Positions 263 to 21,015 are shown, numbered from the whole stretch's first letter. The stretch is DNA of 63,920 nucleotides, filler included, from Theionarchaea archaeon (GCA_018992565.1; 5 parts of 5 records of this genome joined end to end with filler, not necessarily neighbours in it); one strand, 5' to 3'. Notes: generated from the sequence alone by a model not told the origin. Numbers and translations: made by a program.

Positions 263-1483
263 ATGCTTCAGGTCATCAGGGACTTTGCCTTCCTCTTTAA
301 GTACAAGAATTTCCTGGAACTGTGTTTTGCAGTTCTCGTAAGCATGATAGGCTTCGGCTTGATTATCCCCTTACTTCCCATATATGGCAGGGAAATGGGA
401 GCCAGCGGTGTGTATCTGGGGTTACTGACCAGTCTCTTTGGAATTACTCGTACAATAACCTCGTTTCCAGGAGGGGTCCTGGCTGATAGAGTGGGAAGAA
501 AGAAGCTCATTGTGTCAGGACTACTCGTTTACACTGCAGTCATGTTTCTGTTCGGCCTGTCCACAGAACTGTGGCATCTTCTGGTCTTGAGAGCCTGTCA
601 GGGAGCAGCCTCGGGCATTGTCTGGCCTGTTGCAGCTACCATGGTTGCAGATATTGTCCCTTCAAAGGACAGGGGAAAGGCCATGGGTGTTTTCTCCATG
701 ATGTGGGACTCTGGAATTGCTATCGGTCCCGTGCTGGGTGGGCTGCTTTCTGCAGCATTCACCATTGCTGTTCCGTTTTTTGTATGTTCTGTTCTGTCCC
801 TTGTCAGTGCATTCCTCATTTTGAACCGCGTGAAAGAAACACATGTCACACAGCAGAAATCGAAGTCTCCTTCTGAGCAGGGGCTTTCACTGCATGCTTT
901 GTCTTTGATTGGTGTCTGCATTACAGGGTTTGTGGTGTCCTTCGCCATGGGGCTGGTCCAGCCTATTCTCCCTCTGTTTGGCAATGAGGTTTTAGGATTG
1001 AATGAGGCTTCCGTTGGACTCATATTTGGTGCAATGGGCGTTGCTCGATTCATTATTAAGCCCCCTTCTGGTGCCCTTGCAGACAATATAGGGAGAAAAA
1101 GAGTAATAGCCATGGGACTGGCTCTCAATGGCATATTCACAGTGGCCATATCTGCTTCGAGGGATTTCTTGGAAATCATGGGGCTTTCTGTAGCGCGATC
1201 CCTGGGAATGGGTATGACCATGCCCTCCATGAATGCACTGGTTACCAGTCTTACTACTGCTGAAAAGCGAGGGAAGGTGATGGGCATCTTCAGCACGTCC
1301 AGAAACCTCGGACTCGTGGTGGGACCTCTCCTGGGAGGGTTCACCTTTGACGCAATTTCCGTACAGACACCATTCTACATTTGCGGGATAGTGGCCTTCC
1401 TGGGGATAGTAGCTCTGACTCTCCTGGTCACAGAGGAGTCACCCTGTGACGGGCACCCTCTCGAAGATGATTCTGAGAAATGA
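263..1483 (+). CDS. MFS transporter (DHA1-like)
   Basis: 406 aa, about 12 hydrophobic segments, MFS motif A twice (GVLADRVGRK, GALADNIGRK). Confidence 0.92.
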   Translation: MLQVIRDFAFLFKYKNFLELCFAVLVSMIGFGLIIPLLPIYGREMGASGVYLGLLTSLFGITRTITSFPGGVLADRVGRKKLIVSGLLVYTAVMFLFGLSTELWHLLVLRACQGAASGIVWPVAATMVADIVPSKDRGKAMGVFSMMWDSGIAIGPVLGGLLSAAFTIAVPFFVCSVLSLVSAFLILNRVKETHVTQQKSKSPSEQGLSLHALSLIGVCITGFVVSFAMGLVQPILPLFGNEVLGLNEASVGLIFGAMGVARFIIKPPSGALADNIGRKRVIAMGLALNGIFTVAISASRDFLEIMGLSVARSLGMGMTMPSMNALVTSLTTAEKRGKVMGIFSTSRNLGLVVGPLLGGFTFDAISVQTPFYICGIVAFLGIVALTLLVTEESPCDGHPLEDDSEK

Positions 1484-2362: not shown

Positions 2363-3387
2363 ATGTCAAACCAGAATGCAAATGAAAGTAGAGCAATGTG
2401 CAGACACCCTGTTTTTTCTTCAAAACTGAAAAAAAGCTGCCGCAATTTCGTTCCAGTCGAGAGCATCCATTCTCGTATCGCCATTGCTGCTGTCGCATTC
2501 CTGGGACTTCTGGGTTCCCTGGGGACTCCACTCTACATGGTCACTGCAGAGCCGGGAGTCCATGTCAACATCCCGCAATCACCGCTTTCCCCGAACCAGC
2601 CAGTNNNNNNNNNNNNNNNNNNNNNNNNNNNNNNNNNNNNNNNNNNNNNNNNNNNNNNNNNNNNNNNNNNNNNNNNNNNNNNNNNNNNNNNNNNNNNNNN
2701 NNNNTGGAAATCTCTCCTCCTGAAGCTGAAGTGGAAAGAGGAGACACAGCACATTTCCAGATACATGTGGTGTACAGCACCCCTTCATTTAGTGGAACAC
2801 TCATTAACCTGGACGTGAATGGTCTTGGCCCGGGGATGCAGTGGCATTCTACTCCCGGAGGTCAGCTTTCCATCACAACGTCACATGAGACACCTCCCGG
2901 AGACTATCATATTGAAGTCACTGGAGAAGCCCAGGGTGTGGTCAGGCAGGCCATGATAATACTCTTTGTGAGGGAGGAACCTCAAGAGGAGCTGCCGCCA
3001 GAAGAGCATCCTCCTGAGGAACGACCACCTGAAGAACATCCTCAAGAGGAGCTGCCGCCAGAAGAGCATCCTCCTGAGGAACGACCACCTGAAGAACATC
3101 CACCGGATAACTACCAGCCAGAAGCACAACCTGAAGGATATCCTCAGCAGCCAATATCCCAGGAACCTGCACCCGGACAGTACGGCAATTCTCTCCTGTC
3201 AAATCCGTTGTATCTGGCAATTATCGGTCTGGTAATTGTGGTGATAGTACTGGTATTACTTCTTGTATCCAGAAAATCTCAGCCCCCACCGAACCAGCCT
3301 TCACAGAACTACTGCCCAAAATGCGGAGCACCCCTCAGAGCTGATGATTCTTTCTGCAGCTCTTGTGGAGCACGCGTGAGAGACTAG
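2363..3387 (+). CDS. Membrane-anchored protein with Pro/Glu-rich linker, TM helix and C-terminal zinc ribbon (spans a 100-N gap)
   Basis: Hydrophobic IAIAAVAFLGLLGSLG before the gap. After the gap: a beta-rich domain, PPEE repeats, TM LAIIGLVIVVIVLVLLLV and CPKCG..FCSSCG. The frame across the gap is unknown. Confidence 0.7.
2980..3101 (+). repeat. Exact 60-bp tandem repeat (2 copies) encoding PQEELPPEEHPPEERPPEEH
   Basis: 2980-3039 is identical to 3040-3099. Confidence 0.95.
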
Positions 3388-3555
3388 TCATTTCCATTTT
3401 TACTTCACTCCCCCTTGAGGGAGAGCTCTTGTGACCTTTGTTCCTGGCAGATTCTCCTAATCAGTCTATCCTCTCTCTTGCGATTTTCTCTTTCTGTCTT
3501 TTAACATACAGGTCCTGCTGAAAAAGTATATAACATGCCTGCTCGAGGATGGTGC

Positions 3556-5985: not shown

Positions 5986-7839
5986 CTATTCTGGAAGGTT
6001 GCTGTTCAGGTCTATTACTTCATCGCCCCATTCTGCATAAAAGGGATCATGGGCAAAGAGAATGATCTGGTTCGTTCTTTTCAGTCGAGAGAGAATATAG
6101 GCAATATTCTCCAGCCGCCTGTAATCATAACTGACAAAGGAATCATCCAGCAGGAAAGGAAGGTTCACGTTCTGGGAAAGGAGATATGCCATGGAGAGAC
6201 GCATGGCAAAATACAGTTGTTCCACAGCTCCAATGCTCAAGCTCTCTTTATGTATGGAGAAATGTGTCCTGGTTGACACCAGGGGTTCCAGCGTGTCTTT
6301 CTCTAGAGATACTGATGTATACTTTCCATCGGTGATCTTTCCAAAAGCACCTGATATGAGCTTTTTTAATTCTTCAACGTATTCCCCCTGATAATCTGCA
6401 ATACAGTCCTGGAGGGTGGAGATAGCCACAATGAGCGCCTTCCTCTTCCGGCTCAGATGGGTATAGGTTTCCTCCAGTATCTCCTTCTCTTCTTCCCAGG
6501 AATGAAAATCAGTGACCTTCTGTTCACCACTGATCTGGGCAACCCGCAGGGTGGAGAGCTTCTCTTCCTTGGAGGAGATTTCTCTCTCCAGAATGCCCAG
6601 CTGCTGGTTCATATCTTCCTGCAGGTTCAGAAGAGCATCCACAGTTGACTGGGCAAACACAGGATAAAGCTCGCAGATAGACTGTTTCCGGAGGGTTAAA
6701 TTGAAATGGTCTTCCTGGAGCTGTGTCTTCTTCTCTGTCGCTGTCGTGTCATGCTCCGGGTGGATGTCAATGCTGACTTCTTCATGTGGGGTGCTCGTGG
6801 TAAGGACATAGTACATGGCAGCAGCAAGTGCTATCCCGGAACCCAGGGCAGCGATGCTCAACACGGTATTCTGCAATGTCAGCTGCAGCAATAATGAGAT
6901 GGTAATTCCCACGACAGCAATTACAACAGGAGCCACGGTTCCCAGGAGAGCCTTTCTTGATTCTAAATCGTCGATCTTCTTCCTGAAGTCCTGGATTGTA
7001 TGTGATTGACCGTCCAGTAGCCTGAGACTCATCTGAATACGAGAAATCTCCTGTTCCAGCATGACATAGTCCCGTAGAGCCTTCAACGTTGTCTTCCTGG
7101 CATTCAAGTCATTTTTCAGTTCTGATATATGACTCCTCAGAGCCTGGATCTCTCTGTCTGTTGAGAGCAGTTCGGCAGTCGCGTTCCGGGTCTTCTCAAT
7201 AGCCTCCTCAAGTCGTTCTATTTCTTTTTCGATTTCCTCTAACTGCCCCTCTTTTCTTTTTTTCCTCCAGGGGATATCCCTGGTTATCGTCTCCAGTTCC
7301 TGTTCCAGAGATTTGGCAATCTTTATGTAATCTGCTTTCTCAGTGCCAGAAATAAGCTGTCGTATCTTCTGAGAAATCTGGGTCTGGCTCCTCATCTGTT
7401 CTACAAGGGTGGTCAGTCTGAAAATGTCAGAGCTGATAAATCCCATATGTTCCCTGATGAAATCAAAGTACTGTTCCCTGTCAGCGCTACTTCCCCGGGG
7501 ATTTGCTGTTCCCTCAAAGAGCAGTGTGGAGTCCTGTCCTGATACATCCCACACGCTGACCCTATCAGTTTCAAAATCCCGTTCAATGCAGAATAGGCCT
7601 CCTTTTGAGGAGAATGTGACAGCTGCTGAGTATTCTGATGGTGTATCCCACGGTCTGTACTTTTTCTTCTCATCAGTAGTCTGAAATCCAAAGAGTGTAG
7701 CACAAATCGCATCTTTAATAGTTGTTTTTCCTTTTTCGTTGTCGCCCACTATAACGGTGACGCCGTCTGGACTGAAATCAAAACGGGTCGGAGTGTAAAA
7801 CCTACCAAATCCCTGTATGGTGAGGGTGTGTATCTTCAT
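5986..7839 (-). CDS. Rad50/SbcC-like (YhaN-type) ABC ATPase with coiled coil and internal TM hairpin
   Basis: Walker A GDNEKGKTT, signature LSIGA, Walker B FLLDDSF, H-loop LFAH, long coiled coil. Confidence 0.88.
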   Translation of the reverse strand: MKIHTLTIQGFGRFYTPTRFDFSPDGVTVIVGDNEKGKTTIKDAICATLFGFQTTDEKKKYRPWDTPSEYSAAVTFSSKGGLFCIERDFETDRVSVWDVSGQDSTLLFEGTANPRGSSADREQYFDFIREHMGFISSDIFRLTTLVEQMRSQTQISQKIRQLISGTEKADYIKIAKSLEQELETITRDIPWRKKRKEGQLEEIEKEIERLEEAIEKTRNATAELLSTDREIQALRSHISELKNDLNARKTTLKALRDYVMLEQEISRIQMSLRLLDGQSHTIQDFRKKIDDLESRKALLGTVAPVVIAVVGITISLLLQLTLQNTVLSIAALGSGIALAAAMYYVLTTSTPHEEVSIDIHPEHDTTATEKKTQLQEDHFNLTLRKQSICELYPVFAQSTVDALLNLQEDMNQQLGILEREISSKEEKLSTLRVAQISGEQKVTDFHSWEEEKEILEETYTHLSRKRKALIVAISTLQDCIADYQGEYVEELKKLISGAFGKITDGKYTSVSLEKDTLEPLVSTRTHFSIHKESLSIGAVEQLYFAMRLSMAYLLSQNVNLPFLLDDSFVSYDYRRLENIAYILSRLKRTNQIILFAHDPFYAEWGDEVIDLNSNLPE

Positions 7840-8963
7840 GGGGATGCCTCCATGAAGCTGGCCACCCCGATTTTGAGAGCTTCTTCCAGTATAGCTTTTT
7901 CTTCACCCTGAGCCTGGGCGATCTTTCGGAGGAGCGTTGTGACATACATCCCCCTGATGGTACGTTCTTCTTTCCAGGAAGACACGATAGTGCTGTCCAC
8001 TATGGTGGTGGAGTCTTTCAATTGGAGATAGAAGAATGAATCACCAAGCGCCTGACGTACATATTCCAGGTCCAGTGGGAATTGGCAGCGCCCCTGCAGA
8101 TTGAGGCTGACAATGGAGGCGGGATCTCTGTAGTTGCGAGCGATGTGGTCAATGACATCACTCACAGATTCCAGTGGCTGGTTCTCAAGGTTGATATCAA
8201 TGGCCTTGACAGTACGGGTGTTGACTGCTATGGGGGTGATATGGGGAGTCTTCCCCCTGAAATCCACTACCACCATGTACCGCTCACCACTTTCAGAGAA
8301 GTCTCTGCCCTCAAGGCTCCCCGGGTAGACTGCCAGGGTTGTGCCGCACTGGATCTGTTTGAAATTGTGGAAATGTCCGAGTGCTACATAGTCCAGGTGA
8401 GAACGGGCAATATCATGTTCTTCAAGCTGGAAGTCCTGGCCTCTCCGTTCCCAGTGCGCAGGCAGTCCCACTGACCCATGGATAATCCCTATGTGAATTC
8501 CTTCTTCCTGGAAAGGAGAAAAAGACTCAAAGAGGGTTTCATTGCCACCAGGAATGTATGCTGCTCCATAGAAGAACACTTTTTCCCCTGATACTTCTCT
8601 GATGAGAGGTTCGTTGAACGAGGTCAGAATGTGCATTCCCTCAAGCTGCCCTTTTCTGTAAACGCAGGACTTGTATCCATATGCATCATGCGTACCAGGA
8701 ACAGCCACCACCAGGATTCCGTGCTGCCTCAATGAGGAAAGAGTCCTCTGCACGAATCCCACCAGGGAAGAGGGGGGATCGGCCATATCAAAAAGATCAC
8801 CCGCTATGACAAGAGCATCGACATGGTTTGCGGGATCACAACAATAGTCTACAACATGCTGAAAAGAATGTAAAAAATCCTGTTCTCTGCCGGTGGACTT
8901 GTCGCCCACATTCTTGCATTGATATCCCAGATGAACATCTGCTATATGAACAATTCTTACCAT
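7836..8963 (-). CDS. Mre11/SbcD-like (YhaO-type) metallophosphoesterase nuclease
   Basis: Motifs ADVHLG, AGDLFD, PGTHD, HGS, ALGHFH and YPGSLE. ATGA overlap with the ATPase gene. Confidence 0.9.
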   Translation of the reverse strand: MVRIVHIADVHLGYQCKNVGDKSTGREQDFLHSFQHVVDYCCDPANHVDALVIAGDLFDMADPPSSLVGFVQRTLSSLRQHGILVVAVPGTHDAYGYKSCVYRKGQLEGMHILTSFNEPLIREVSGEKVFFYGAAYIPGGNETLFESFSPFQEEGIHIGIIHGSVGLPAHWERRGQDFQLEEHDIARSHLDYVALGHFHNFKQIQCGTTLAVYPGSLEGRDFSESGERYMVVVDFRGKTPHITPIAVNTRTVKAIDINLENQPLESVSDVIDHIARNYRDPASIVSLNLQGRCQFPLDLEYVRQALGDSFFYLQLKDSTTIVDSTIVSSWKEERTIRGMYVTTLLRKIAQAQGEEKAILEEALKIGVASFMEASP

Positions 8964-9268
8964 AGAGTCTCTCTCCGTTATTCCCCTTGGACAAAATCCT
9001 TCAAAGTTCCCATATGAAGAAGCGCCTCTTCCCTTTCTGAGGGGTTATACGTGAGGAAGCCAGTATGCACGTTACAATCCCCACATACCTGGCATCACTT
9101 GTTTGCGATATGAGACTGTGTTTGCATCACTACCTTTTCAGAAGTTTATAAATGTTGCTTCTCTTGAAGGTCTGCACATCTGGAGGGATTCTGCATGCAC
9201 ATTGAAATGGAGGAGAGAACCACAAACCTTTTAACTAAAGACATCAACAGGGCTATGGAGGTGAACCA

Positions 9269-9421
9269 ATGAAAGCACTGAGAGTGAATAAGAAATTATG
9301 GACGGAAATTCTCATAGAAGACATTAGCGAGTCTCCTTCCATATGTAATCCGATTATCACTCCCTATGGTGTCTGTGGTGGCTGCTGCTGTCCATTCCTG
9401 TGCAGACCTTTGATATGTTAA
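9269..9421 (+). CDS. Putative RiPP precursor, 50 aa: MKALRVNKKLWTEILIEDISESPSICNPIITPYGVCGGCCCPFLCRPLIC
   Basis: GGAGGTGA SD at 9257-9264 and TATA-like TTTTAACT at about 9229. Cys-free 25-aa leader, then a core with 7 Cys. Lies directly upstream of two rSAM/SPASM genes. Below the ORF-track size cutoff. Confidence 0.85.
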   Translation: MKALRVNKKLWTEILIEDISESPSICNPIITPYGVCGGCCCPFLCRPLIC

Positions 9422-9584
9422 GCTTTTCTGAGTAATAACCCTGAATTAAGTGGTAGATATTCCCTGTCGGCAAATGGGCTCGTATTAGAGTGATACAGGT
9501 ATGTTAATGGGAAATAAGACCATATTTCTCTGAGAGAATGCATACCGTGAGGTTAATGTTGAGCAACATAAGTGAGGTGACTTC

Positions 9585-10970
9585 TTGAGGATCAGCAGAT
9601 ACAGTATCTCTCTCAAAATAGATGAGGACCAGTACCTCCTGATTAATTCTCGTACTGGAGCAGTTGATCTTGTGGACAGAGATGTAGTTGACCTCATAGA
9701 GAATGGCTTTTCTCAAGGAGATTCTTCCATAGGTGAATTTCTCAAAGAGAGGGGGCACCTGACGGATTTGTCGCCTGAGGAAGAACTGGAATACATGGAG
9801 GAGTTCTGTGGTCGTCTCCACAAGCGCTTCTCACAGACCAGGACACACATTATCATTCCCACCTACACGTGCAACCTGAGGTGTACCTACTGCTGGGAAC
9901 AGCTCCTGCATTCCAGAGGGAAGGAGTGGATAAACAGGACCCTGTCTCTTGAAGAAACTGATCTCTTTTTTGCTGCACTGGATGAACTTGATGAAAAAAG
10001 CACCAGGAAGAAACCACTGATTTATTTCGGGGGAGAACCTCTGCTCCCTGAGAATGAAGAGCTCATTAGCTACATCATGAAAGAAGGGTCGAAAAGAGGA
10101 TATACTCACTATTTTGTCACCAACGGGACAAATATACCACATTATCTCCCGCTCTTCCGTAAAAACGCTGTTCATGGTGTCCAGATTACACTGGATGGAA
10201 CGCAGGAGGTGCATGATGCACGCAGGAAAGGACCGGGGAATGAAGGTTCTTTCCAGAGGATTGTAGAGGGAATTGCATTATTAAGTTCGCATAGGATCAT
10301 GACTCATATCAGGGTGAATATTGATTACTCAAATGTTGACTGTCTAGAGAGTCTGGCATCCTTTTTGAAAATGAAAGGGTGGCATATAAATCGCTACACT
10401 GTACCGTACCTGGCCTCTGTGTTCAATTACGGGTGTGGTGCATATGCGAAAGCATACAGGAGAGAAGAGTCCATGTCACATCTCCTCTCCCTGTGGAAGA
10501 ATGAGAGTATATGGGAGGTTTTCAAGAGAGGTGTTTCAGGGTTTCATTCACTGGAATCTGTATTGAGAGATGAAGTGTGGTCTCCTCAATTCTATAACTG
10601 CAGGGCCCACTCAAACCAGCTCTTTTTCGACCCTCATGGAAATATCTACCCCTGTTGGGAATCTGTGGGGGAAGAAGACCATTGCGTGGGACAGTTTATT
10701 CCCTCTCTTGAGTTCAACAGAACGTATGAAATGTGGAGGAAGAGAACTGTGATGAACATGAAAGAATGCAGAGAGTGCTCCTATGCTTTTGTATGTGGGG
10801 GAGGGTGTGCCTATCACGCACATGCGTCAAAAGGTTCCATTTTTGCCCCAGTTTGTCAGCCCACCAGACAAGTGCTGGAAGAATACATTCCTTTTTGTTA
10901 TCGTAAATTCCTCAGTGAAGGCTGGGTGCCTCCAGCGGTGGAACAGAATACGGCACAGGGCAGGTACTAG
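9585..10970 (+). CDS. Radical SAM/SPASM peptide maturase 1 with N-terminal RRE-like domain
   Basis: CNLRCTYC, FGGEPLL, SPASM C-x12-G-x4-C...CRECSYAFVCGGGC-x15-C. GAGGTGA precedes the TTG start. Confidence 0.92.
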   Translation: MRISRYSISLKIDEDQYLLINSRTGAVDLVDRDVVDLIENGFSQGDSSIGEFLKERGHLTDLSPEEELEYMEEFCGRLHKRFSQTRTHIIIPTYTCNLRCTYCWEQLLHSRGKEWINRTLSLEETDLFFAALDELDEKSTRKKPLIYFGGEPLLPENEELISYIMKEGSKRGYTHYFVTNGTNIPHYLPLFRKNAVHGVQITLDGTQEVHDARRKGPGNEGSFQRIVEGIALLSSHRIMTHIRVNIDYSNVDCLESLASFLKMKGWHINRYTVPYLASVFNYGCGAYAKAYRREESMSHLLSLWKNESIWEVFKRGVSGFHSLESVLRDEVWSPQFYNCRAHSNQLFFDPHGNIYPCWESVGEEDHCVGQFIPSLEFNRTYEMWRKRTVMNMKECRECSYAFVCGGGCAYHAHASKGSIFAPVCQPTRQVLEEYIPFCYRKFLSEGWVPPAVEQNTAQGRY

Positions 10971-10990
10971 AATATATGTGATAAGATAGA

Positions 10991-12379
10991 ATGATATGTG
11001 ATAGTATGAATGAATCCACAGCCCGGAAGAGCAGCTACAATGTTGTGATCCCTCTTTCAACATCAGCATCGGGAGCTTCAGAAACAGAGAGCTCATACAT
11101 TATTGCTAACCCTCTCTATGGAAATGCATCACTTGTGAGTGCAGACGAGCTGGAAATACTTGCCACATTTCCCCGCTCGCGTGATGATGTTGTTGTATTT
11201 CACTTGAAGGATGAAGGGTATATCACAACTCTCACAGAGGGAGAAGAAAAGGAACTGATGAAAAAGAGATATGAAGAACAGAAGAAGCCCCGAACCCCTC
11301 GAACTGCCATCATTGTAACCTATCAATGTAACTTGCGCTGTACGTACTGCTGGACAGACCACCTGTTTACATCTGATACCATGGGGAGAGTCATTGATGA
11401 AAGAACAGTGGATAGAGCCTTTGACACCATACCGCAGATACCCGCTCTAGAATCTGTGAAGAGCATGTCATTCTACGGTGGAGAACCGTTTCTACCCTCA
11501 ACACGTTCGATAGTGGAATGTATTCTGGAAAAAGGGTCTGAGAGAGGTTTTACCTTCCATGCCAATACAAATGGGTACTACCTCACAGAGTTTGTCCCCC
11601 TCTTTTCACAATATGCTATGGAAGGACTGGGAGTTACTCTGGATGGGTGTCAGCCGGTGCATGATGCGCGACGCAGGAGAAGTGATAGAGGTGGTACCTT
11701 TTATAAGATCGTGGATGGCATAGATAGTGCTCTGGATAACGGGATACCCATAGGAGTAAGGATCAATGTAGATTCACAGAATATTGAGGGACTACCCGCC
11801 TTTAAGGACTGGATTACGGAACACGGCTGGGCCAATAGGAAGGATATTTCTTTTGCCTTCACTCCCGTCCTGCCCGGGAAAGGGAATACTCCTCCTGGCC
11901 TTCTGACCTATTCTGAAATGGCAGAGAAGATTATAGTCATGGGGAAGGAATCACCCTCCCTCTTTAAGATGATGCATTACACCTGGGAGTACTTTGTGGA
12001 AGGATATTTATCCCGTACCATACTGCAGGGGACGGAGTTACAACCCCGGCCGTTTTACTGTTCTGCTCATTTCCAGACTTTTTCTTTTGATCTGTTTGGT
12101 GATATATATTGCTGCCCCCGGGCCGTGGGAGACAAGACCTTTTCTGTTGGACAGTTTGTCCCTGAACTGAGATTCAACAGGAATTTTGAGGAGTGGATGA
12201 ACAGAGATGTGCTGTCTATTCCGCGGTGTAGGAAATGTGATGTTGCGCTGCTGTGTGGAGGAGGATGTGCATATGAAGCATACCTCCAGTCAGGGACACT
12301 CTTTGAAGGATACTGCCAGCAGTACAGAGCTTTCCTGGAGTATGGGGTTCCTCTCTTTGCGCGACAGAGAATGCAATAG
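10991..12379 (+). CDS. Radical SAM/SPASM peptide maturase 2 with N-terminal RRE-like domain
   Basis: CNLRCTYC, YGGEPFL, SPASM C-x12-G-x4-C...CRKCDVALLCGGGC-x15-C. Paralog of the upstream gene. Confidence 0.92.
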   Translation: MICDSMNESTARKSSYNVVIPLSTSASGASETESSYIIANPLYGNASLVSADELEILATFPRSRDDVVVFHLKDEGYITTLTEGEEKELMKKRYEEQKKPRTPRTAIIVTYQCNLRCTYCWTDHLFTSDTMGRVIDERTVDRAFDTIPQIPALESVKSMSFYGGEPFLPSTRSIVECILEKGSERGFTFHANTNGYYLTEFVPLFSQYAMEGLGVTLDGCQPVHDARRRRSDRGGTFYKIVDGIDSALDNGIPIGVRINVDSQNIEGLPAFKDWITEHGWANRKDISFAFTPVLPGKGNTPPGLLTYSEMAEKIIVMGKESPSLFKMMHYTWEYFVEGYLSRTILQGTELQPRPFYCSAHFQTFSFDLFGDIYCCPRAVGDKTFSVGQFVPELRFNRNFEEWMNRDVLSIPRCRKCDVALLCGGGCAYEAYLQSGTLFEGYCQQYRAFLEYGVPLFARQRMQ

Positions 12380-12455: not shown

Positions 12456-13250
12456 TTACGGAGATATACCCACTTCTGCCTGCTTGCCTTCGAATTTCTC
12501 TATGATCTTCACGAAAAGCTTCTCAAAGTTGTCCATAGTGTCTTGCATCAGTTCTTCATGTATCTTTTCCTCGGTAAGGAGTTCCTTGATTTTTTGAGCA
12601 ACTTTGAGCTTGTCAAATCCACCCAAATTTCTGTCTTTGAAAAGCCTCGAATATCTTTCTATTGTTAGCCCATGCTTCGGAAATTCCCCAATTTCAATTT
12701 TAGAACAGTCTAACTTGCTCCGAAAAATGTCTTGGTATGCATCATTGACTGCTTCAAGAAAGAATTCTTCACCAAAAAGATCCTCTATTTCCAACTGCGT
12801 TCCCTCTAGACTCTCGTCGATTTCATTAAGCTTCAAGATATCGTTATTCACATCTACATTTTGAAATTTTCTTTCGATTGCCGAAATAACATTATGCGCT
12901 TTTCTGTCGCTATCAAGTACTCCTATCGTATTGTACTTCTCAGCCTTGTGCCATGCCATGAGGGAGGGAATCTTATCAGCTCCTCCAGCTCCAATAATCA
13001 TCAACTTGTCAAGGTCTATCGTCTTCCTTTTCCTGTTCTTCAGGTAATTTGCTAGTGTCTCAAGGTATACCTTATCGCAATACCCCTCTACAACTATGTT
13101 ATTCTTATGTCCAAACAAAGAATCTGAGATTTCTGCCCCAATCGCAGCCCTTATTACTTGAAAGCAATCAAACATGGAATCCCAAAACTTCTCATAAACT
13201 TTCGTTCCAACATCTTTCTTTCTTTCAACAATTCTGATTCTTTCCAACTT
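12456..13250 (-). CDS. C-terminal TOPRIM part of an OLD-family-like ATP-dependent nuclease (5' truncated at scaffold end)
   Basis: Motifs IVVEGYCDKVYL, IGAGGADKI, VLDSD and EIEDLF. Visibly AT-richer than its neighbours. Confidence 0.7.
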   Translation of the reverse strand, partial: KLERIRIVERKKDVGTKVYEKFWDSMFDCFQVIRAAIGAEISDSLFGHKNNIVVEGYCDKVYLETLANYLKNRKRKTIDLDKLMIIGAGGADKIPSLMAWHKAEKYNTIGVLDSDRKAHNVISAIERKFQNVDVNNDILKLNEIDESLEGTQLEIEDLFGEEFFLEAVNDAYQDIFRSKLDCSKIEIGEFPKHGLTIERYSRLFKDRNLGGFDKLKVAQKIKELLTEEKIHEELMQDTMDNFEKLFVKIIEKFEGKQAEVGISP

Positions 13251-13350
13251 NNNNNNNNNNNNNNNNNNNNNNNNNNNNNNNNNNNNNNNNNNNNTTAATT
13301 AATTAANNNNNNNNNNNNNNNNNNNNNNNNNNNNNNNNNNNNNNNNNNNN
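13251..13350. other. Artificial scaffold linker
   Basis: N44-TTAATTAATTAA-N44 (stops in all six frames). Confidence 0.98.
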
Positions 13351-13731
13351 AATAGCCACTATCCCCAGGCCAGTGGTAACCCTGCTGATGGGCACACCTA
13401 TTCTGGAACGACCATAGTTCAGGGCCAGCCATATTATTCCCACACCAATAGGAACTGCCCCTTCCAGGTTCACGTGGTATACGTTCTGCACTGTCCACAC
13501 CAGGCCAACGACTATGAAGAACGCAGCCCATGCCATGCCCTCGAGGTTTTTGCCTTGAGAACGGTCTACATCAACTCTGCCATCGGAGATATTCAGGGGT
13601 CCAATCCGCACTTTCTCTTCTCCTTTTTTGCCTTTCACTTCAATTGGCCCTACCTCGACATATGAGCCTTCTTCATCTTCCTTCACTTTGAGGAAAGGAA
13701 GATCAATGTCAGCTTTTTTCTTCTCTGCCAC
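13351..13731 (-). CDS. Hypothetical membrane protein (3' truncated)
   Basis: Beta-rich repeats (LPFLKVKE/VGPIEVK/IGPLNIS) followed by TM helices. Confidence 0.65.
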
Positions 13732-15417: not shown

Positions 15418-16032
15418 ATGGCCAGTATCCCCTTAAGACTATTCGGTATTTGCGGGAGCCCACGTCTTCAATCTACTGATTCTGCAGTTCGGAAGGCGCT
15501 GGAATACGCTGAGGAGACGTATTCTGTTGAAACCAGGTATTTTTCATGTCACAAGAAGGAGCTCAACTTCTGCATTCATTGTGACTACTGCGTAAGGAAA
15601 AAAGAAGGCTGTGTATTCAAAGACGATATGGAGGAGGTATATTCATCGCTGGAATGGGCAGATGCACTTATCATGGGTACTCCTGTATATCAGGGGACGG
15701 TCTCTGGTCAGATGAAGGTAGTCATGGATCGATGCAGGGCATTGCTAGCCAAGAATCCTCACGTTCTCTCTCAGAAGGTGGGGGCTGCACTTGCAGTCGG
15801 TGGTGATCGCATGGGAGGACAGGAAGTGGCACTCCAGACTATTCTGGAATTCTATGTCATCAATGAAGTCCTTCCAGTGGGAGGTGGCTCTTTCGGAGCA
15901 AACCTGGGGATGACGTTCTGGTCAAAGGACATGGGCGCATCAGGTGTAGAACGTGACAGAGAGGGACTGAGGACACTGCACAAGACAGTAGACAGGCTGG
16001 TATCAGTTGCTCAGGCCATCAGGAGGATGTAG
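15418..16032 (+). CDS. Iron-sulfur flavoprotein (Isf-like flavodoxin family)
   Basis: GICGSPR, CIHCDYC-x6-C, GTPVYQG, DRCRA. Confidence 0.88.
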   Translation: MASIPLRLFGICGSPRLQSTDSAVRKALEYAEETYSVETRYFSCHKKELNFCIHCDYCVRKKEGCVFKDDMEEVYSSLEWADALIMGTPVYQGTVSGQMKVVMDRCRALLAKNPHVLSQKVGAALAVGGDRMGGQEVALQTILEFYVINEVLPVGGGSFGANLGMTFWSKDMGASGVERDREGLRTLHKTVDRLVSVAQAIRRM

Positions 16033-16033
16033 C

Positions 16034-16582
16034 ATGGAAAAAGTTGCATGGGGTATCACGGGCTCTGGGGATTATATGAGAGAGTCTCTGGACCTGATGA
16101 AAGAGATACATGAAGCATTTGCAGTACGAATAGATGTATTTCTCTCACGAGAAGGTGAGGTTGTCCTGAAGCATTATGGGTACATGCAGGAGATTGAAAC
16201 GTCCTTCGAAAACGTTCACACAGAAAAGGGGCCCAATATACCGTTCCTTTCTGGAAAACTACAGATGGGCAAGTACAAAGTCTTCATGATCTGTCCGGCC
16301 ACTGCTAATACGGTAGCCAAGCTGGCTCACGGGATTGCAGATTCTCTCATTACGAATTCTGCAGCTCAAGCAATGAAAGTGGATTGTCCTGTGTACATTT
16401 TTCCCGTGGACCAGAAGCTGGGAACAGTGGTCACCAGGCTGCCCGATGGCAGTGATCTAACCCTGCACGTGCGGGAAGTAGATGTGGAGAATGTGGAAAT
16501 TCTCAGAAAGATGAGAGGAATTACTGTTATGGGTCAGGTGGAAGACGCAAAGGACATCATCAAGAAGTGCTGCAGCTGGTAG
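16034..16582 (+). CDS. afpA: Archaeoflavoprotein AfpA (HFCD flavoprotein family)
   Basis: Motifs VAWGITGSGD, PATANTVAKLAHGIADSLITN and IFPVDQ. Confidence 0.8.
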   Translation: MEKVAWGITGSGDYMRESLDLMKEIHEAFAVRIDVFLSREGEVVLKHYGYMQEIETSFENVHTEKGPNIPFLSGKLQMGKYKVFMICPATANTVAKLAHGIADSLITNSAAQAMKVDCPVYIFPVDQKLGTVVTRLPDGSDLTLHVREVDVENVEILRKMRGITVMGQVEDAKDIIKKCCSW

Positions 16583-16719
16583 CCTCATTGACTGCAATCT
16601 GAGTCTTCTCCTGTGGACAGTGACCGGGACATTCTCCATCATGCTTGCCATTCATTCACACCTGCCCCACCCCGGAGACTCCCACAAACTATAAATGCTG
16701 TTAGACCAAATAAAAGCCA

Positions 16720-17709
16720 ATGAAAGAAGCTCGCTTTTATGAAACCCTCCCGAATGAAGCCGTTCAGTGTCATTTGTGTCCCCACGAGTGCGTTATTAGG
16801 GACGGAAAGCGAGGAGTATGTGGAATTCGCGAAAACCAGAAGGGAATCCTCTATTCAACCATATATGAGGAGATCACGTCCCGGGGAGTTGACCCTGTAG
16901 AGAAGAAGCCACTGTACCATTTTTACCCTGGTAGTGAGGCATACTCTGTGGGGACGTTAGGCTGCAATTTATCATGTTCTTTCTGTCAGAACTGGGAGAT
17001 TTCCCAGGGGAGTGTTCCCACGTATCGGATGACCTCCCATGAGATCGTAGAAGCCACAGAGTACAGGAAGTGCATGAGTATTGCCTACACGTATAACGAA
17101 CCCTCAGTGTGGTATGAATTCGTCTATGATACTGCTGCCCTGGCCAGGGAGCATGGTATCAATAATGTGCTGGTAACCAACGGATACATTAATGAAGAAC
17201 CCTTGAAAGAGCTGCTGCCTTTCATTGATGCCATGAATATTGATGTGAAGGCTTTCACTGATTCATTTTACAAAGAATTATGTCACGGAAAGCTGGATCC
17301 TGTGCTGAAAACGGCAGAGATGGCCAAAAAATCCACCTGGGTGGAAATAACTACATTAATAATCCCGGGTAAGAACGACAGCGATAGGGAAATTGAAGAA
17401 CTGGTCAGCTGGGTGGCATCGTCTCTGGGAGAAGATACTCCCCTCCACTTCTCCCGGTACTATCCCAGTTACCACCTCCACATTCCTCCAACAGACATTG
17501 AAACGCTGGAGAGAGCCCGTTCTCTTGCTCTGAAGGAATTACGCTATTGCTACATTGGCAATGTGTGGAACCATGAGGGAGACAACACCTATTGCTACAA
17601 CTGCGGGAATACCCTCATTACCAGACGGGGGTTCTCTGCGTCAATTGTAGGAATAACAGAAGAGAGGACCTGCTGCAACTGTGGTGCCAGAATAGACATT
17701 GTGTTGTGA
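16720..17709 (+). CDS. amrS: AmmeMemoRadiSam system radical SAM enzyme (PflA-like)
   Basis: Motifs CHLCPHEC, DPVEKKPLYHFYPG, GCNLSCSFCQNWEISQ, AYTYNEP and PLHFSRYYP. Confidence 0.9.
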   Translation: MKEARFYETLPNEAVQCHLCPHECVIRDGKRGVCGIRENQKGILYSTIYEEITSRGVDPVEKKPLYHFYPGSEAYSVGTLGCNLSCSFCQNWEISQGSVPTYRMTSHEIVEATEYRKCMSIAYTYNEPSVWYEFVYDTAALAREHGINNVLVTNGYINEEPLKELLPFIDAMNIDVKAFTDSFYKELCHGKLDPVLKTAEMAKKSTWVEITTLIIPGKNDSDREIEELVSWVASSLGEDTPLHFSRYYPSYHLHIPPTDIETLERARSLALKELRYCYIGNVWNHEGDNTYCYNCGNTLITRRGFSASIVGITEERTCCNCGARIDIVL

Positions 17710-17713
17710 TACT

Positions 17714-18352
17714 ATGGATAGGAAGACAGTCACCGACATGCTGAAAAAATACGGGTACATAACCTCCCCCGAGGTGGAAAAGGCCTTTTTGACAGTGCCC
17801 CGGGAATCATTCGTCCTCCCCGGATATAGAGACCGTGCATATGCTGACACCCCTCTGCCCATCTTATGTGGACAGACCATATCAGCCCCCTCTATGATCG
17901 CCATCATGCTGGAAGTCTCCCAGTTGGCCCGGGGGATTTCCGTGCTGGAGGTTGGATGTGGCTCCGGGTATAATGTAGCATTAATTGCTGAAATTGTAGG
18001 GGAAGACAATGTCTTATCTATAGAACGAATTCCAGAGCTGGCTGAGTGGGGAAAGGAGAACCTGAAATCAGCAGGATACAGTGTTACAGTAGTCATTGGT
18101 GATGGAACGCTGGGATATCCTGAAAAAGCCCCTTACCACAGGATTATCTCCACTGCCGCAGCCCCCAGAATTCCTTCACCCTGGGTGAACCAACTGGAGC
18201 CAGATGGTCTCATTGTATGTCCTGTGGGTTCAAAGCACTGGTACCAGGAACTGGAGGTGGCGCAGAAGACTGAAAAGGGCGATCTCGTCATAACCCATCA
18301 TGGTGGATGTGCCTTTGTTCCTCTCATTGGAGAGGAAGGGTTCAGGCAGTAA
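17714..18352 (+). CDS. pcm: Protein-L-isoaspartate O-methyltransferase
   Basis: Motifs VPRESF, AYADTPLPI, GQTISAP, VLEVGCGSGY, GDGTLG and FVPLIG. Confidence 0.93.
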   Translation: MDRKTVTDMLKKYGYITSPEVEKAFLTVPRESFVLPGYRDRAYADTPLPILCGQTISAPSMIAIMLEVSQLARGISVLEVGCGSGYNVALIAEIVGEDNVLSIERIPELAEWGKENLKSAGYSVTVVIGDGTLGYPEKAPYHRIISTAAAPRIPSPWVNQLEPDGLIVCPVGSKHWYQELEVAQKTEKGDLVITHHGGCAFVPLIGEEGFRQ

Positions 18353-19661
18353 TCCTCAGCGAATCTACAAGAATATATCCTGTATCTGTATAGGTGGGAT
18401 AGACAAAGGACCTGTGAAGCTCCCTTTCTGTGCTGATTAAGCTCACTCTGGGAAGTAAATCCTCGAATGCCAGCCCAGAGATCATGCATCCTCTAACAGG
18501 AGTCGTTAACTCACCATTTTTGATGATAAATCCTGAGGTCACCCCGATGGAGAACAGGCCCGACTGTGACTTGGAGGCGTGAGAATTCGTTTCCTCCATC
18601 ACAAAGATACCATCCTGGACTTCAGTGATGAGCTCCTCCAGTGGTGCAGTCTCCCCTTTGACATCTAGTGATGTGGCACAGGGCTTGGGAGGATCCCTGA
18701 GATTCCGACCGCGATAGCGGCTGTATCTGACGCCCCCTGCTGTTGTTTCTCCATAGTAGGTGTCAAAAATAAAGGATTTAACACAGGCATCAGCCATGAG
18801 GTCCACTGACTGGGAGGGTATTCCTTCATCATCAAACTGACGTCCCTGAGGTCCTTCCACCAACGGATTCTCTCTGATGGTGAGGTGTTCTGCCGCAACT
18901 CTCTGTCCTATCTTCAGCGAAGAACGTCCCTCCTCCACATTATGCCCCAGGAAGGAAGGGACTGCTGCACACACCAGGAGGTTCGCAAATACCCGGGGAG
19001 CAAGCAATACTTTTTTCTCTCCCGATTCTGGTTTTACTTTTCCCAGCTGCCTCACAGCCTGCTGTTCTGCACGTTTCCCCATATCGTAAAAATCGAAATC
19101 ATATCCTAGTGAGTATCCGTACGTATAGCCCATGCCAGAATCACCATCTGCCGCTCTGCACATGACCCTGAGGGCAGCCAGTGAATCAGCACTCTTTTTT
19201 GAAATCCCCGATGTATTGGCAATTTCTATCTGAGAATATCCAAGCTGGCAGTCTATATTGGAGGCCACAATTCTCTGATCGTCTATAGCATCACAGACAC
19301 CCTTCATATCCTGAATAACCTGGTCTATTGATGTGTCTGCAACTGAGGTTCTATACAGGTTCAATGAGGGTGCGGGTCTTTCAGGGGGAAAAGATTTCCA
19401 TTTCTCATTCTCCTCTCGCTTCCTGGCCAGCGAGAGTGCTTCCTCCACTGCTTCTTTCCAGGATTGGGTGAAGTAAGAGAACCCCACCCTCCGGTCAACA
19501 ACAACTCTCAGTGCATACTCAGTAATCCTGGCCTGAAACACCTGCCTGGGCTCCCCCAGTTCAAACCTGGCATACGCATAGTCAGATTCTTCGCGCACCA
19601 CCTCTGCTTCATTGGCTCCTTTCTTCTCAGCATACGCCAGTATCTTATCGACCTCGGCCAC
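18342..19661 (-). CDS. TldD/PmbA family protein, PmbA/TldE-type subunit
   Basis: FDDEGIP, GFIIKNGEL, no HExxxH motif. Downstream of tldD. Confidence 0.85.
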   Translation of the reverse strand: MAEVDKILAYAEKKGANEAEVVREESDYAYARFELGEPRQVFQARITEYALRVVVDRRVGFSYFTQSWKEAVEEALSLARKREENEKWKSFPPERPAPSLNLYRTSVADTSIDQVIQDMKGVCDAIDDQRIVASNIDCQLGYSQIEIANTSGISKKSADSLAALRVMCRAADGDSGMGYTYGYSLGYDFDFYDMGKRAEQQAVRQLGKVKPESGEKKVLLAPRVFANLLVCAAVPSFLGHNVEEGRSSLKIGQRVAAEHLTIRENPLVEGPQGRQFDDEGIPSQSVDLMADACVKSFIFDTYYGETTAGGVRYSRYRGRNLRDPPKPCATSLDVKGETAPLEELITEVQDGIFVMEETNSHASKSQSGLFSIGVTSGFIIKNGELTTPVRGCMISGLAFEDLLPRVSLISTERELHRSFVYPTYTDTGYILVDSLRITA

Positions 19662-21015
19662 CTATCATCACCTCCCGCAGTCTGATCTTGGGTACCAACC
19701 TCCCCTGGTAGTCCATCTGTCCTTTACCGCATCCCCCAGATGCCACATCCACCTCTTTTCCCACTGCATCCACCTTTTTCATGGTCTCCAGGATGTTGCC
19801 TGAAAGGGAACATCCCCGTAAATACTTGCCCAATTCACCATGAGCAATCTCCCGCGTGTACTGTGTTCCGAATGAGAAGGTACCCTCGCCCACATTGACC
19901 TGTCCGCCTGCAGAATCTCCCAGGAAGAGACCATCTCTCACATCCAGGAGCTCTGAAAGGGCATACTCACCCGGATCAAGAAGAGTATTCCCCTGGCGCA
20001 CAATGGGAGTCCTTGAGAAGTATTCTGCCTTGCAGTGGCCTGTCAGGGGGGCATCAAGAAGAGCAGCAGTCTCCCTGGAATGCAAGTAGGACTTAAGGAT
20101 TCCTTCCCTGATTACCGTGGTAGGCCGGGCAGCAACCCCCTCGTGGTCATATGGGCTGAACCCCATCAATTCCTGCGTGGGGTCGTCCCTCATGGTGATA
20201 CAATCTGCTGCAACTCTTTCCCCAATCCTCCCTGCCAGTATAGACTCATTGGAGACTACCAGATCAGCCTCCACTGCGTGACCACATGCTTCATGCAATA
20301 AGGTGCCAGTCAGCGTGTTGCTCAGGACGCAGTCCATGACTGATGAAGGAGAATGTTCTGCCTCAACCAGGATATCTGCCTCCCGGGCCAGCTGCGCTGT
20401 GGTTTCCATAATGTGGTTTTCATTGGCCAGCAGATACTCCATTCCTCCCACACCTCCCCAGGTTTGTGCCCGTGACTCAATACTTGCTCCTTCCTTGCAC
20501 GTCATGCTGGCCCTGAGATAGATGCGATCTATCCTGGTGGTAACCCTTCTTCCTTCTGACGTTGAAATATGTATGAACCGCTCAAAGGCAATGAGACTGA
20601 TACTGAGAGAGGAAATTCTCCTGCTCTGTTCATAAGCTCTATCCTCCATGGAAGCCAAGAATTCTGTAACATCTTCATCAACAACCCTCTTCCTGGCCTT
20701 TTTCTCCACAGTGACTGTTCCAGCCTCTGTCTCTTTGACAGTAACCTCGTTCTTCCGGGTTTGAGCCCTCGCCGACTTCATTACCCTGTCCAGAAGAGAA
20801 GGAAGATCAGATTCAGATGTTACCATGCCAGTCCCCCAGGACCCATTGACCAGGCATCTCAGGCAGAACCCTTCATTTATCTGTACCTCAGTGCTGTTGG
20901 TCTTTCCATTTTCCCGAATCACTGTATAGACTCTCTTATTATCGTGACGAAGATCAGCATAGGTTGCACCCCGTGCTGAAGCTTGATCAACAATACTCAT
21001 TGCTGCCGTTTTCAT
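19645..21015 (-). CDS. tldD: TldD-type metalloprotease subunit
   Basis: LLHEACGHAVEAD (HExxxH), YDHEG, GGQV, C-terminal GCGKGQ. Confidence 0.88.
   Translation of the reverse strand: MKTAAMSIVDQASARGATYADLRHDNKRVYTVIRENGKTNSTEVQINEGFCLRCLVNGSWGTGMVTSESDLPSLLDRVMKSARAQTRKNEVTVKETEAGTVTVEKKARKRVVDEDVTEFLASMEDRAYEQSRRISSLSISLIAFERFIHISTSEGRRVTTRIDRIYLRASMTCKEGASIESRAQTWGGVGGMEYLLANENHIMETTAQLAREADILVEAEHSPSSVMDCVLSNTLTGTLLHEACGHAVEADLVVSNESILAGRIGERVAADCITMRDDPTQELMGFSPYDHEGVAARPTTVIREGILKSYLHSRETAALLDAPLTGHCKAEYFSRTPIVRQGNTLLDPGEYALSELLDVRDGLFLGDSAGGQVNVGEGTFSFGTQYTREIAHGELGKYLRGCSLSGNILETMKKVDAVGKEVDVASGGCGKGQMDYQGRLVPKIRLREVMIGGRGR

Follow-up and report, generated by a model that had tools for sequence, protein, structure and literature searches.

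What is the substrate of two adjacent radical S-adenosylmethionine (SAM)/SPASM enzymes encoded in the genome of an uncultured Theionarchaea archaeon? We analysed a stretch of DNA of 63,920 nt from this genome (GCA_018992565.1), called the window below; all positions are counted from its first letter. A preliminary description of the window had pointed to a short open reading frame (ORF) at 9269-9421, on the plus strand upstream of the two enzyme genes, here named rSAM1 and rSAM2, and had suggested a system producing a peptide that is made on ribosomes and modified after translation (RiPP). The peptide encoded by this ORF is very probably the substrate of the enzymes. We consider it probable, although with less certainty, that the three genes form a leader-guided radical SAM RiPP cassette, in which the peptide is docked by its leader and its Cys core is cross-linked by thioethers. 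That the links are thioethers is argued by analogy, and taken separately this point has about an even chance of being correct.

The ORF exists, and its translation, MKALRVNKKLWTEILIEDISESPSICNPIITPYGVCGGCCCPFLCRPLIC, is exactly as claimed. The peptide has seven Cys residues at positions 26, 36, 39, 40, 41, 45 and 50 (spacing 10, 3, 1, 1, 4, 5), all within the last 25 residues, and Pro residues at positions 28, 32, 42 and 47, in its second half. Residues 1-25 are Cys-free. Among the 706 window ORFs of 25-90 amino acids it is the only one with at least six Cys in the last 25 residues; the runners-up are four ORFs with five. The peptide gene seems not to be called in the public record of the genome, and no peptide match at 100% identity was returned by a search of 5.8 billion proteins. 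Each of the two enzymes has a public entry with 100% identity, named 'MAG: radical SAM protein [Theionarchaea archaeon]'. Thus the gene callers appear to have missed the key gene of this locus.

Homologues of the peptide were readily found. All six candidates from the same protein search are homologous peptides of 50-57 amino acids (E-values from 5e-26 to 1.7e-9). A profile search of 1.84 billion representative proteins yielded 12 matches at E <= 0.001, nine of which are peptides of 49-69 amino acids with the same leader; one of the other three, P0155, is an unrelated repeat protein of 168 amino acids. In all, 14 related peptide clusters were observed. The long members of two clusters (P0161 and P0164) were considered as peptide-enzyme fusions and rejected, as they are unrelated proteins.

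The alignment of 17 family members shows a near-invariant leader, MKA[LV]xxNKKLWTxxxxE[DE], where K2, N7, L10 and W11 are invariant, then a variable linker, and then a tail at the extreme C-terminus consisting of (Cys-Gly)n with varying n and the motif GCCCx[FY]LCxxLIC. There are 6 to 12 Cys per peptide. Conservation of other core residues is limited to Gly, one aromatic residue, Leu and Ile, and the aromatic position [FY]43 is occupied by Cys, His or Leu in several members. Identity within the family goes down to 31-35% with the leader motif intact. The proposed boundary between a 25-residue leader and a 25-residue core is not fixed: the Cys26 column has no Cys in 4 of the 17 members, although in two of these a Cys stands one or two positions before it, and conservation of the core starts near Gly34.

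The relative for which the DNA was compared belongs to locus L001 of another Theionarchaea metagenome-assembled genome (MAG), G001 (contig JACVGT010000027.1). The alignment covers 50 codons: 26 are the same, 12 have synonymous changes only and 12 have non-synonymous ones. All six codon changes within residues 1-12 are synonymous. All seven Cys are retained, and the L001 peptide has one additional Cys-Gly unit. The homologues, the conserved leader and the silent codon changes in residues 1-12 argue for selection at the level of the peptide. Hence 9269-9421 is evidently a real gene under protein-level selection, which appears to be strongest on the leader.

The family seems not to have been described. 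In Pfam and NCBIfam no family matched the peptide better than E 0.27, and the best score in a search of the ESM Atlas was 0.83, below the meaningful level. A metagenome scan with the peptide alignment produced 35 pattern matches, none of which was confirmed. Only one true match of the peptide profile, in G001, was observed in 33 genomes of the order and a sample of 100 genomes of the class; a further match in G045 (E 0.008) is a false positive inside a large unrelated ORF. The core is indeed unlike SCIFF, as had been suggested. On the other hand, the supposed echo of SCIFF-type leaders was not borne out, since alignment of the peptide to a SCIFF peptide by hhalign had a probability of 1.3%.

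The preliminary description would have a conserved small Cys-rich ORF accompany orthologous enzyme pairs, and such an arrangement was found in L001. There, a divergent Mre11-like gene is followed by the peptide, rSAM1 and rSAM2 genes, with order, strand and spacing as in the window. The enzymes are 79% (rSAM1) and 80% (rSAM2) identical to those of the window. The 3' flanks differ, with a gene for a DUF6531 protein in L001 and an OLD-like TOPRIM gene in the window. As the downstream genes are different, the conserved unit consists of the peptide and the two enzymes. The peptide and the enzymes are thus linked in two genomes. Indirect evidence comes from contig sizes: in 5 of the 14 peptide clusters the longest contig equals in size that of a cluster of rSAM1 orthologues (38643, 43932, 31312, 5611, 5312). 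A tblastn search with the 17 peptides against 96 loci gave matches only in L001 and in a paralogous locus of the same genome. No match was found in any of the 80 metagenome loci, whose enzymes are at most 34% identical to rSAM1; these loci came from a scan with the rSAM1 alignment that picked up generic Fe-S motifs.

Both enzymes have the features ascribed to them. The genes lie on one strand, and each product contains the radical SAM motif CxxxCxxC, in both cases CNLRCTYC, and the full seven-Cys SPASM pattern Cx12Gx4C ... CxxCx5Cx3C ... C. The Pfam Radical_SAM domain (PF04055) was recognized with 61.2 bits in rSAM1 and 64.5 bits in rSAM2 (cut-off 29.5), and the SPASM domain (TIGR04085) with 61.4 and 50.9 bits, respectively (cut-off 27). 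The enzymes are 33% identical over the whole length and are best regarded as old paralogues. In a tree of 13 maturases they lie on separate deep branches, and rSAM2 groups weakly (83/83) with the enzymes of a sister locus of G001 that has three maturases. No position-specific clades, separating enzymes encoded by first genes from those encoded by second genes, were observed in this tree. In NCBIfam both enzymes are below the cut-off of every curated family. All of the best matches, namely CefB, TIGR04463 (the CrpC family), PapB and Clo7bot, are maturases of peptides, which in most cases are Cys-rich; DynA and YhhB also matched. The preliminary description had compared the layout with that of clusters making thioether-linked peptides. 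Indeed, the nearest solved relative by both sequence and fold is the thioether synthase CteB, and by extension the chemistry might be similar. In a profile search CteB is the closest solved relative of rSAM1 (E 2.3e-25, residues 18-429 against 17-440 of the chain), and it is the top Foldseek match of both models (E 4.1e-14 for rSAM1, 3.7e-17 for rSAM2). TigE (PDB 8VPO) is among the top fold matches of both.

The N-terminal extensions had been read as domains of some 80-90 residues resembling a RiPP recognition element (RRE). About 89 residues precede the radical SAM core in rSAM1 and about 106 in rSAM2. The rSAM2 model has a mean predicted local distance difference test score (pLDDT) of 77.6, with 75-93 in the N-terminal domain. 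This domain consists of three strands (E) and three helices (H) in an order matching the RRE of CteB (E18-21, E35-40, E45-50, H51-59, H66-74, H83-97). Residues 15-462 of the model align with residues 1-448 of the CteB chain, including its N-terminal recognition domain (Z 23.9, root-mean-square deviation 4.1, 399 residues aligned), and TigE is aligned over 7-462, again with the N-terminal domain. Structures of anaerobic sulfatase-maturating enzymes (AnSME) align with rSAM2 only from residues 101-102 on, and with rSAM1 only from 84-85 on; for the catalytic part of rSAM2 AnSME (Z 24.0) ties with CteB. Since CteB aligns from residue 15 and AnSME, which has no such domain, from residue 101, the N-terminal hundred or so residues of rSAM2 occupy the place of the CteB RRE. 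The N-terminal part of the rSAM1 model is composed of E7-12, E15-21, E27-30, H32-39, H47-55 and H64-84, and so likewise begins with three strands followed by a helix.

For rSAM1, further evidence comes from a predicted complex with the peptide. This was the only enzyme modelled in complex, both partners being supplied as alignments, in three runs with three controls. The ipSAE interface score was 0.77, 0.75 and 0.76 in the three runs (0.76 overall), as compared to 0.07, 0.00 and 0.02 in the controls. Of solved complexes, 58 of 80 attained the mark used for this score, and of mismatched pairs 2 of 110. The runs have at least 39% of contacts in common, with a partner pLDDT of 50 or more. On the peptide side the confident contacts involve residues 1-12, 14 and 16-23; these represent the conserved leader, and the Cys core contributes none. 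The N-terminal domain of rSAM1 takes part with residues 18-19, 24-31, 33-57 and 74-82, and the rest of the chain with 318-344 and 449-452. Pairing is tightest, and antiparallel, between rSAM1 residues 24-31 and peptide residues 11-3, which is the strand addition known for recognition elements. Residues 24-31 are within the most conserved N-terminal stretch of the enzyme group (xSGAVDLVD). The model thus supports binding of the leader by the N-terminal domain of rSAM1. Fold and complex model support the predicted recognition element; sequence does not.

The two enzymes differ in the residues lining the pocket. Six pocket positions defined on CteB in the available text of PMC10288494 were mapped through phmmer alignments. 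They correspond to W104, F148, V178, T202, W358 and E359 in rSAM1 and to W121, Y162, N192, T216, P376 and R377, in the same order, in rSAM2. Within the orthologues of each enzyme these residues are invariant or nearly so, with the exception of E359, which is absent from the list of conserved columns. As the pocket residues differ and yet stay conserved within each set of orthologues, rSAM1 and rSAM2 do not look redundant. Most likely they act on different sites or as a complex, and they may perform different reactions.

These observations can be combined in the following scheme. The three genes would be transcribed as one operon from the conserved TATA-like block at 9140-9160. The Cys-free leader MKALRVNKKLWTxxxIED would dock, as in the model, on the N-terminal recognition domain, adding a beta strand to it. 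By analogy with CteB, the Cys/Gly core (CG)n-GCCCx[FY]LCxxLIC would then enter the radical SAM barrel, where the active site has the radical SAM cluster on one side and the first auxiliary cluster on the other. There an acceptor carbon would lose a hydrogen to the 5'-deoxyadenosyl radical, and a thioether ring would be closed by the sulfur of a Cys. We infer the modification of the peptide, the thioether nature of the links and the identity of the acceptor carbons. Links from sulfur to the alpha carbon (sactionine-type), partly onto Gly, seem to us more likely than links to polar side chains, because conservation of the core outside Cys is confined to Gly and hydrophobic residues and because Cys-to-Gly alpha-carbon thioethers have been demonstrated in StsA (three links) and BlaA (two links), as stated in the available part of PMC10288494.

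As to the role of the product, our guess is a thiol-rich, ring-constrained peptide binding metal or sulfide. It is prompted by the Crp system of Methanococcus voltae, whose genes are upregulated on pyrite (PMC13692751, 2026, as far as its available text goes). A bolder proposal is that the maturase pair, and the trio of the sister locus, make a product not seen before, for example stacked short Cys-to-Gly alpha-carbon thioether rings with a group of thiols left free to bind metal or sulfide, and that the precursor described here is one of several families of a lineage-specific radiation. We think this rather unlikely. If true, Theionarchaea would be an unrecognized and prolific source of radical SAM peptides with a cellular, not antibiotic, role.

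Several observations weigh against the proposed cassette function. The thioether claim leans on families whose cut-offs both enzymes miss by far, and no Asp, Glu, Thr, Asn or Gln is conserved in the core that could be an acceptor like those of the characterized ranthipeptide enzymes. The rSAM1 model is poor (mean pLDDT 63, with 49-69 at the N-terminus), and its N-terminal domain was not aligned to CteB in a second structural comparison. Sequence tests for a recognition element were negative. The N-terminal domains of the enzymes had no match to PF05402 at E <= 1, hhalign comparison with a genuine PqqD protein of G001 gave a probability of 1.3%, and the best match of a PDB profile search with these domains had E 0.068. 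For CteB, SuiB and ChlB, complexes with leaders have been solved, and the high score of the complex may reflect the model's memory of them. Synteny at the DNA level was seen in just two fairly close genomes, and the gene set conserved between the window and L001 includes no protease, transporter or immunity gene. On the expression side, none of the RNA-library contigs covers the peptide gene. Still, the computable parts of the preliminary interpretation are supported, and no computation refuted it.

Some of these points invite other explanations. The peptide could be the substrate, with one or both enzymes carrying out chemistry other than thioether formation, such as C-C or C-O links onto the conserved aromatic residue, epimerization, or Cys oxidation as in AnSME. 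SPASM maturases of the same architecture do form C-C bonds, an example being TigE (cyclopropylglycine), one of the top fold matches, and the NCBIfam matches to DynA and YhhB, as well as the tie between AnSME and CteB, point in the same direction. The pocket positions, different between the two enzymes and conserved in each, make two different reactions plausible. However, it is Cys itself that is conserved in the core, and the one aromatic position is too often replaced to suit a link onto it. Furthermore, the top curated families act on Cys-rich peptides and, where characterized, form thioethers (PMC13692751, available text). We thus consider such chemistry unlikely. A more radical departure is that the small protein is not modified at all, being a free-standing metal or sulfide binder or a chaperone or regulator of the enzymes, which themselves act on a protein encoded elsewhere. 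The lack of a protease and an exporter in the cassette would agree with this, and Cys-Gly runs would presumably bind soft metals unaided. There is also a parallel in CrpC (TIGR04463), which modifies a 28.8-kDa protein, while a second leader-bearing protein, CrpB, may be a helper (PMC13692751, same part). But conservation of the family extends to the Cys-free leader and is not confined to the Cys tail, it is the leader that touches the enzyme N-terminal domain in the complex model, and paralogous enzyme sets in G001 adjoin small Cys peptides of their own. No larger Cys-rich protein is encoded nearby in the window. In our view an unmodified protein is improbable.

The ORF might also be a translated 'leader peptide' tuning the expression of Fe-S enzymes to the supply of cysteine through its Cys codons, or simply a chance ORF. 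Three consecutive Cys codons, and seven Cys in 25 codons, just upstream of two Cys-demanding Fe-S enzymes are what such control would look like. To our knowledge, there is no archaeal precedent for it. Moreover, selection acts on the amino acids at positions 1-12, which are Cys-free (six synonymous changes, none non-synonymous), the family is kept at low identity with the leader motif intact, and the RNA fold of the spacer stretch 9419-9584 (166 nt) is no better than that of shuffled controls (z 0.53). A chance ORF would hardly be a 1-in-706 outlier with a strong ribosome-binding site. Both versions are scarcely credible, and we return to the cassette with the peptide as a substrate.

The signals around the genes are listed in Table 1 with the other features. 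The Shine-Dalgarno sequence reported upstream of the peptide gene, GGAGGTGA, is present and conserved. The reported TATA-like box, TTTTAACTAAAGA, is conserved as well, but is situated only about 28 bases 5' of the ATG, so that transcription starting from it would cut into the ribosome-binding site. The block AGAAGTTTATAAATGTTGCTT at 9140-9160 is a better candidate for an archaeal TATA/BRE-like element (BRE, transcription factor B recognition element) and presumably acts as the promoter; all its 21 bases are the same in L001, despite an insertion of 74 bases between the block and the ORF there. The stop codon of the peptide gene and the start of rSAM1 are separated by a 163-base spacer. A short T run, AGCTTTTCTGAG, is located at 9419-9432, directly behind the stop codon of the peptide gene, and might act as a weak archaeal terminator yielding a surplus of the precursor transcript. 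In RNA library X20 one contig of 248 nt corresponds to 9631-9878 inside rSAM1 at 100% identity, although a contig in an RNA library is no proof of transcription.

Table 1. Features of the candidate cassette, in window coordinates
Feature	Position	Strand	Remarks
Promoter-like block AGAAGTTTATAAATGTTGCTT	9140..9160	+	TATA-like core TTTATAAAT at 9145-9153; purine-rich upstream flank; proposed from conservation in L001
Second A/T-rich block TTTTAACTAAAGA	9229..9241	+	box of the preliminary description; identical in L001
Ribosome-binding site of the peptide gene, GGAGGTGA	9257..9264	+	four bases 5' of ATG; kept in L001
Precursor peptide gene	9269..9421	+	153-base ORF, 50 amino acids; leader ~1-21, variable linker 22-33, Cys/Gly core 34-50
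Ribosome-binding site of rSAM1, GAGGTGA	9574..9580	+	four bases 5' of TTG; block GAGGTGACTTCTTGA identical in L001
rSAM1, radical SAM/SPASM candidate peptide maturase	9585..10970	+	461 amino acids; TTG start; same 461-residue start in the public record (P0010)
rSAM1 N-terminal domain (residues 1-88), predicted leader-binding element	9585..9848	+	model, CteB profile alignment, complex model
rSAM1 CxxxCxxC (CNLRCTYC, residues 96-103)	9870..9893	+	motif
rSAM1 SPASM region	10599..10856	+	Cys 339, 357, 395, 398, 404, 408, 424; motif and TIGR04085
rSAM2, second radical SAM/SPASM candidate peptide maturase	10991..12379	+	462 amino acids from the first ATG; 20 bases after rSAM1; start in the public record Met6 (11006), 457 amino acids
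rSAM2 N-terminal domain (residues 15-100), RRE-like by fold	11033..11290	+	structure model
rSAM2 CxxxCxxC (CNLRCTYC, residues 113-120)	11327..11350	+	motif
rSAM2 SPASM region	12059..12316	+	Cys 357, 375, 413, 416, 422, 426, 442; motif and TIGR04085

The cassette is flanked by genes of other kinds. Divergent from it, on the minus strand (5986-8963), are genes for an Mre11-like phosphoesterase (375 amino acids) and a short Rad50/SMC-like ATPase (617 amino acids), and the Mre11-like gene occupies the same position in L001 (2155-3282, minus strand). PADLOC analysis of the flanks and the enzymes showed only generic ATPase likeness (heads of LmuB, PbeC and DndD) and viperin-core likeness. Convergent with the cassette (12456-13731, minus strand) are genes for a 263-residue OLD-like TOPRIM protein (27.4 bits) and a 142-residue ORF of no family, neither of which is found at the corresponding place in L001; this may be a variable or defence-type spot. 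Further downstream (15418-17709, plus strand) are genes for an FMN reductase (PF03358), a 191-residue PF02441 flavoprotein (UbiX/EpiD-type fold family), a 329-residue radical SAM protein and then a PCMT methyltransferase. They were kept out of the cassette, because in L001 a different gene is directly downstream of it. A pair of TldD/PmbA-type metallopeptidases (439 and 456 amino acids; PF19289, 140 and 188 bits) is encoded at 18342-21015 on the minus strand, 6 kb downstream. Such pairs process some modified peptides in bacteria; nothing ties this one to the cassette.

According to the NCBI taxonomy, the class Theionarchaea belongs to Methanobacteriota. Near-identical DNA was found in 19 sequencing runs from six studies, annotated as marine sediment, estuary, mangrove, soil or 'metagenome', while three runs bear a coded organism name; six of the 19 runs may be the source itself. 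The genome G001 contains ten paralogues of the maturases in tandem sets, with at least four different small Cys peptides. The sets are the orthologous pair of L001, a trio, a pair, a single enzyme, and a pair behind a double-PqqD protein. The trio locus (L083, 1429-1632, plus strand, and L091/L088) starts with a 67-residue peptide ending in PTGKCGGCACGCFVVNCMGLSAC and continues with three tandem maturases; the peptide is related to the precursor family (hhalign 92.6%, E 4.5e-7). The radiation is patchy, as matches of rSAM2 at E <= 1e-40 were observed in only 2 of 33 genomes of the order.

Other loci of this kind are of separate interest. In L094 of G001 (2853-3080, minus strand) two tandem radical SAM/SPASM paralogues are directly preceded by the gene for a 75-residue peptide with six exact CALEVQPTF repeats. 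This peptide, with its repeated Cys-x-x-Glu unit, is a candidate RiPP in its own right. In two genomes, genes for peptides of 28-39 amino acids with the common pattern ...E[IV][ED]IDQCMCCA precede a single maturase that belongs to the same enzyme group, two peptides in L096 of G001 (2934-3425, minus strand) and one in L087 of G054 (2822-2941, minus strand). In L089 of G001 (802-1452, plus strand) a 216-residue protein with two PqqD domains (PF05402, 66.6 bits) is encoded just upstream of another maturase pair, and no small Cys-rich ORF was seen near these genes. Distant metagenome loci also have Cys-rich small ORFs of other types just upstream of SPASM enzymes: L027 (3462-3668), L055 (3306-3461), L033 (3433-3567) and L070 (498-641), all on the plus strand. 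The small ORF of L027 ends in NCACGTCGCGYTICAY and is also Cys-Gly rich, and that of L070 encodes a typical SCIFF peptide.

How does the cassette compare with known systems? SCIFF with CteB/ScfB of Clostridia (TIGR03973/TIGR03974; PDB 5WGG, 5WHY) likewise combines a short, highly conserved Cys-rich peptide with a radical SAM-SPASM enzyme, which in CteB carries an RRE. In having no protease, exporter or immunity gene, the cassette is closer to SCIFF than to bacteriocin clusters. However, the enzymes are far under the cut-off of the SCIFF maturase family (90.9 bits for rSAM1 and 77.2 for rSAM2, cut-off 425), and the peptides are unrelated. The cassette has two enzymes where SCIFF has one, its core is of the Cys-Gly/CCC type, whereas the SCIFF Cys are set among Thr, Ser, Gln and Lys, and the host is archaeal. 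Among curated families, CefB (NF038107), also a maturase of Cys-rich peptides, is the best for rSAM1 and is matched end to end (residues 2-437 against 2-429 of 444). Still, the scores (166.5 bits for rSAM1, 92.2 for rSAM2) are well below the cut-off of 600, and the Cys are not at every fifth residue. We found no paper containing the phrase 'Cys-every-fifth', and so far as seen CefA/CefB seem to be uncharacterized.

PapB of freyrasin-type ranthipeptides (NF047865) is the third-best curated match of rSAM1 (128 bits) and the best of rSAM2 (112 bits; cut-off 340). The profile has no N-terminal domain: its 330 positions are matched from residue 93 or 107. PapB-type substrates carry repeated Cys-x3-Asp/Glu motifs. 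The precursor described here has no such motif, whereas the six-fold CALEVQPTF peptide of G001 recalls this type. Anaerobic sulfatase maturases (TIGR03942) are more distant (80 and 56.4 bits, cut-off 349) and lack an N-terminal recognition domain. Two paralogous radical SAM/SPASM maturases encoded side by side are also a feature of the thuricin CD and ruminococcin C clusters. For ruminococcin C the paired maturases are reportedly RumMC1 and RumMC2. In thuricin CD the two enzymes, TrnC and TrnD, cooperate and work as a complex (available part of PMC12093266). However, these clusters are bacterial and have two to five precursors with export or immunity genes, whereas here there is one precursor for two enzymes.

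The core of alternating Cys and Gly resembles that of BlaA and StsA (CxCxCx4GxGxG in the latter, according to the available text of PMC10288494). However, rSAM1 matches StsB (NF045574) only in the radical SAM core (59.6 bits, cut-off 625), and the core motif is different, (CG)n-GCCC...C...C. Besides, StsB requires a separate RRE protein, StsC, whereas here the N-terminal domain is fused to the enzyme. The CrpA/CrpB/CrpC system of M. voltae is the archaeal counterpart: an RRE-radical SAM-SPASM enzyme acts on a Cys-rich substrate with a leader-like N-terminus, and its family, TIGR04463, is the second best for both enzymes. Ranthionine thioethers have been shown there by experiment, in a protein of 28.8 kDa whose ten repeats, of 17 residues each, contain C-x-x-Q/D motifs (PMC13692751, in the part available). 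Here, by contrast, the substrate would be a 50-residue peptide with no C-x-x-Q/D motif, and the scores are 131.8 (rSAM1) and 106.4 bits (rSAM2; cut-off 525).

Modified peptides of archaea have hardly been explored. Radical SAM RiPP clusters have been predicted widely in archaea, and only two haloarchaeal lanthipeptides are named as characterized before 2025 (PMC12144867, available text). The first archaeal SPASM thioether enzyme was characterized in 2026, and acts on a protein, not a peptide (PMC13692751, as above). Among the papers examined we found none tying Theionarchaea to modified peptides or gene clusters; the compendium of about 15,000 enzymes in PMC10288494 could hold relatives under other names.

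By architecture, then, the cassette would belong to the known Cys-rich RiPPs matured by RRE-radical SAM-SPASM enzymes, with a predicted RRE. It is outside the SCIFF, CefAB, Crp, PapB, StsB and sulfatase maturase groups, with the enzymes under every cut-off and a different substrate motif. The precursor family is undescribed, in a lineage with many such cassettes. It is a compact three-gene testable system with a defined leader, a docking strand defined in the model and two distinct maturases. It lends itself to asking how one substrate is shared by paired radical SAM enzymes, and whether cores rich in Gly and poor in acceptors are linked at the alpha carbon. To a specialist in the systems compared above such a cassette would not be surprising, yet it comes from a domain in which almost nothing of its sort has been characterized.

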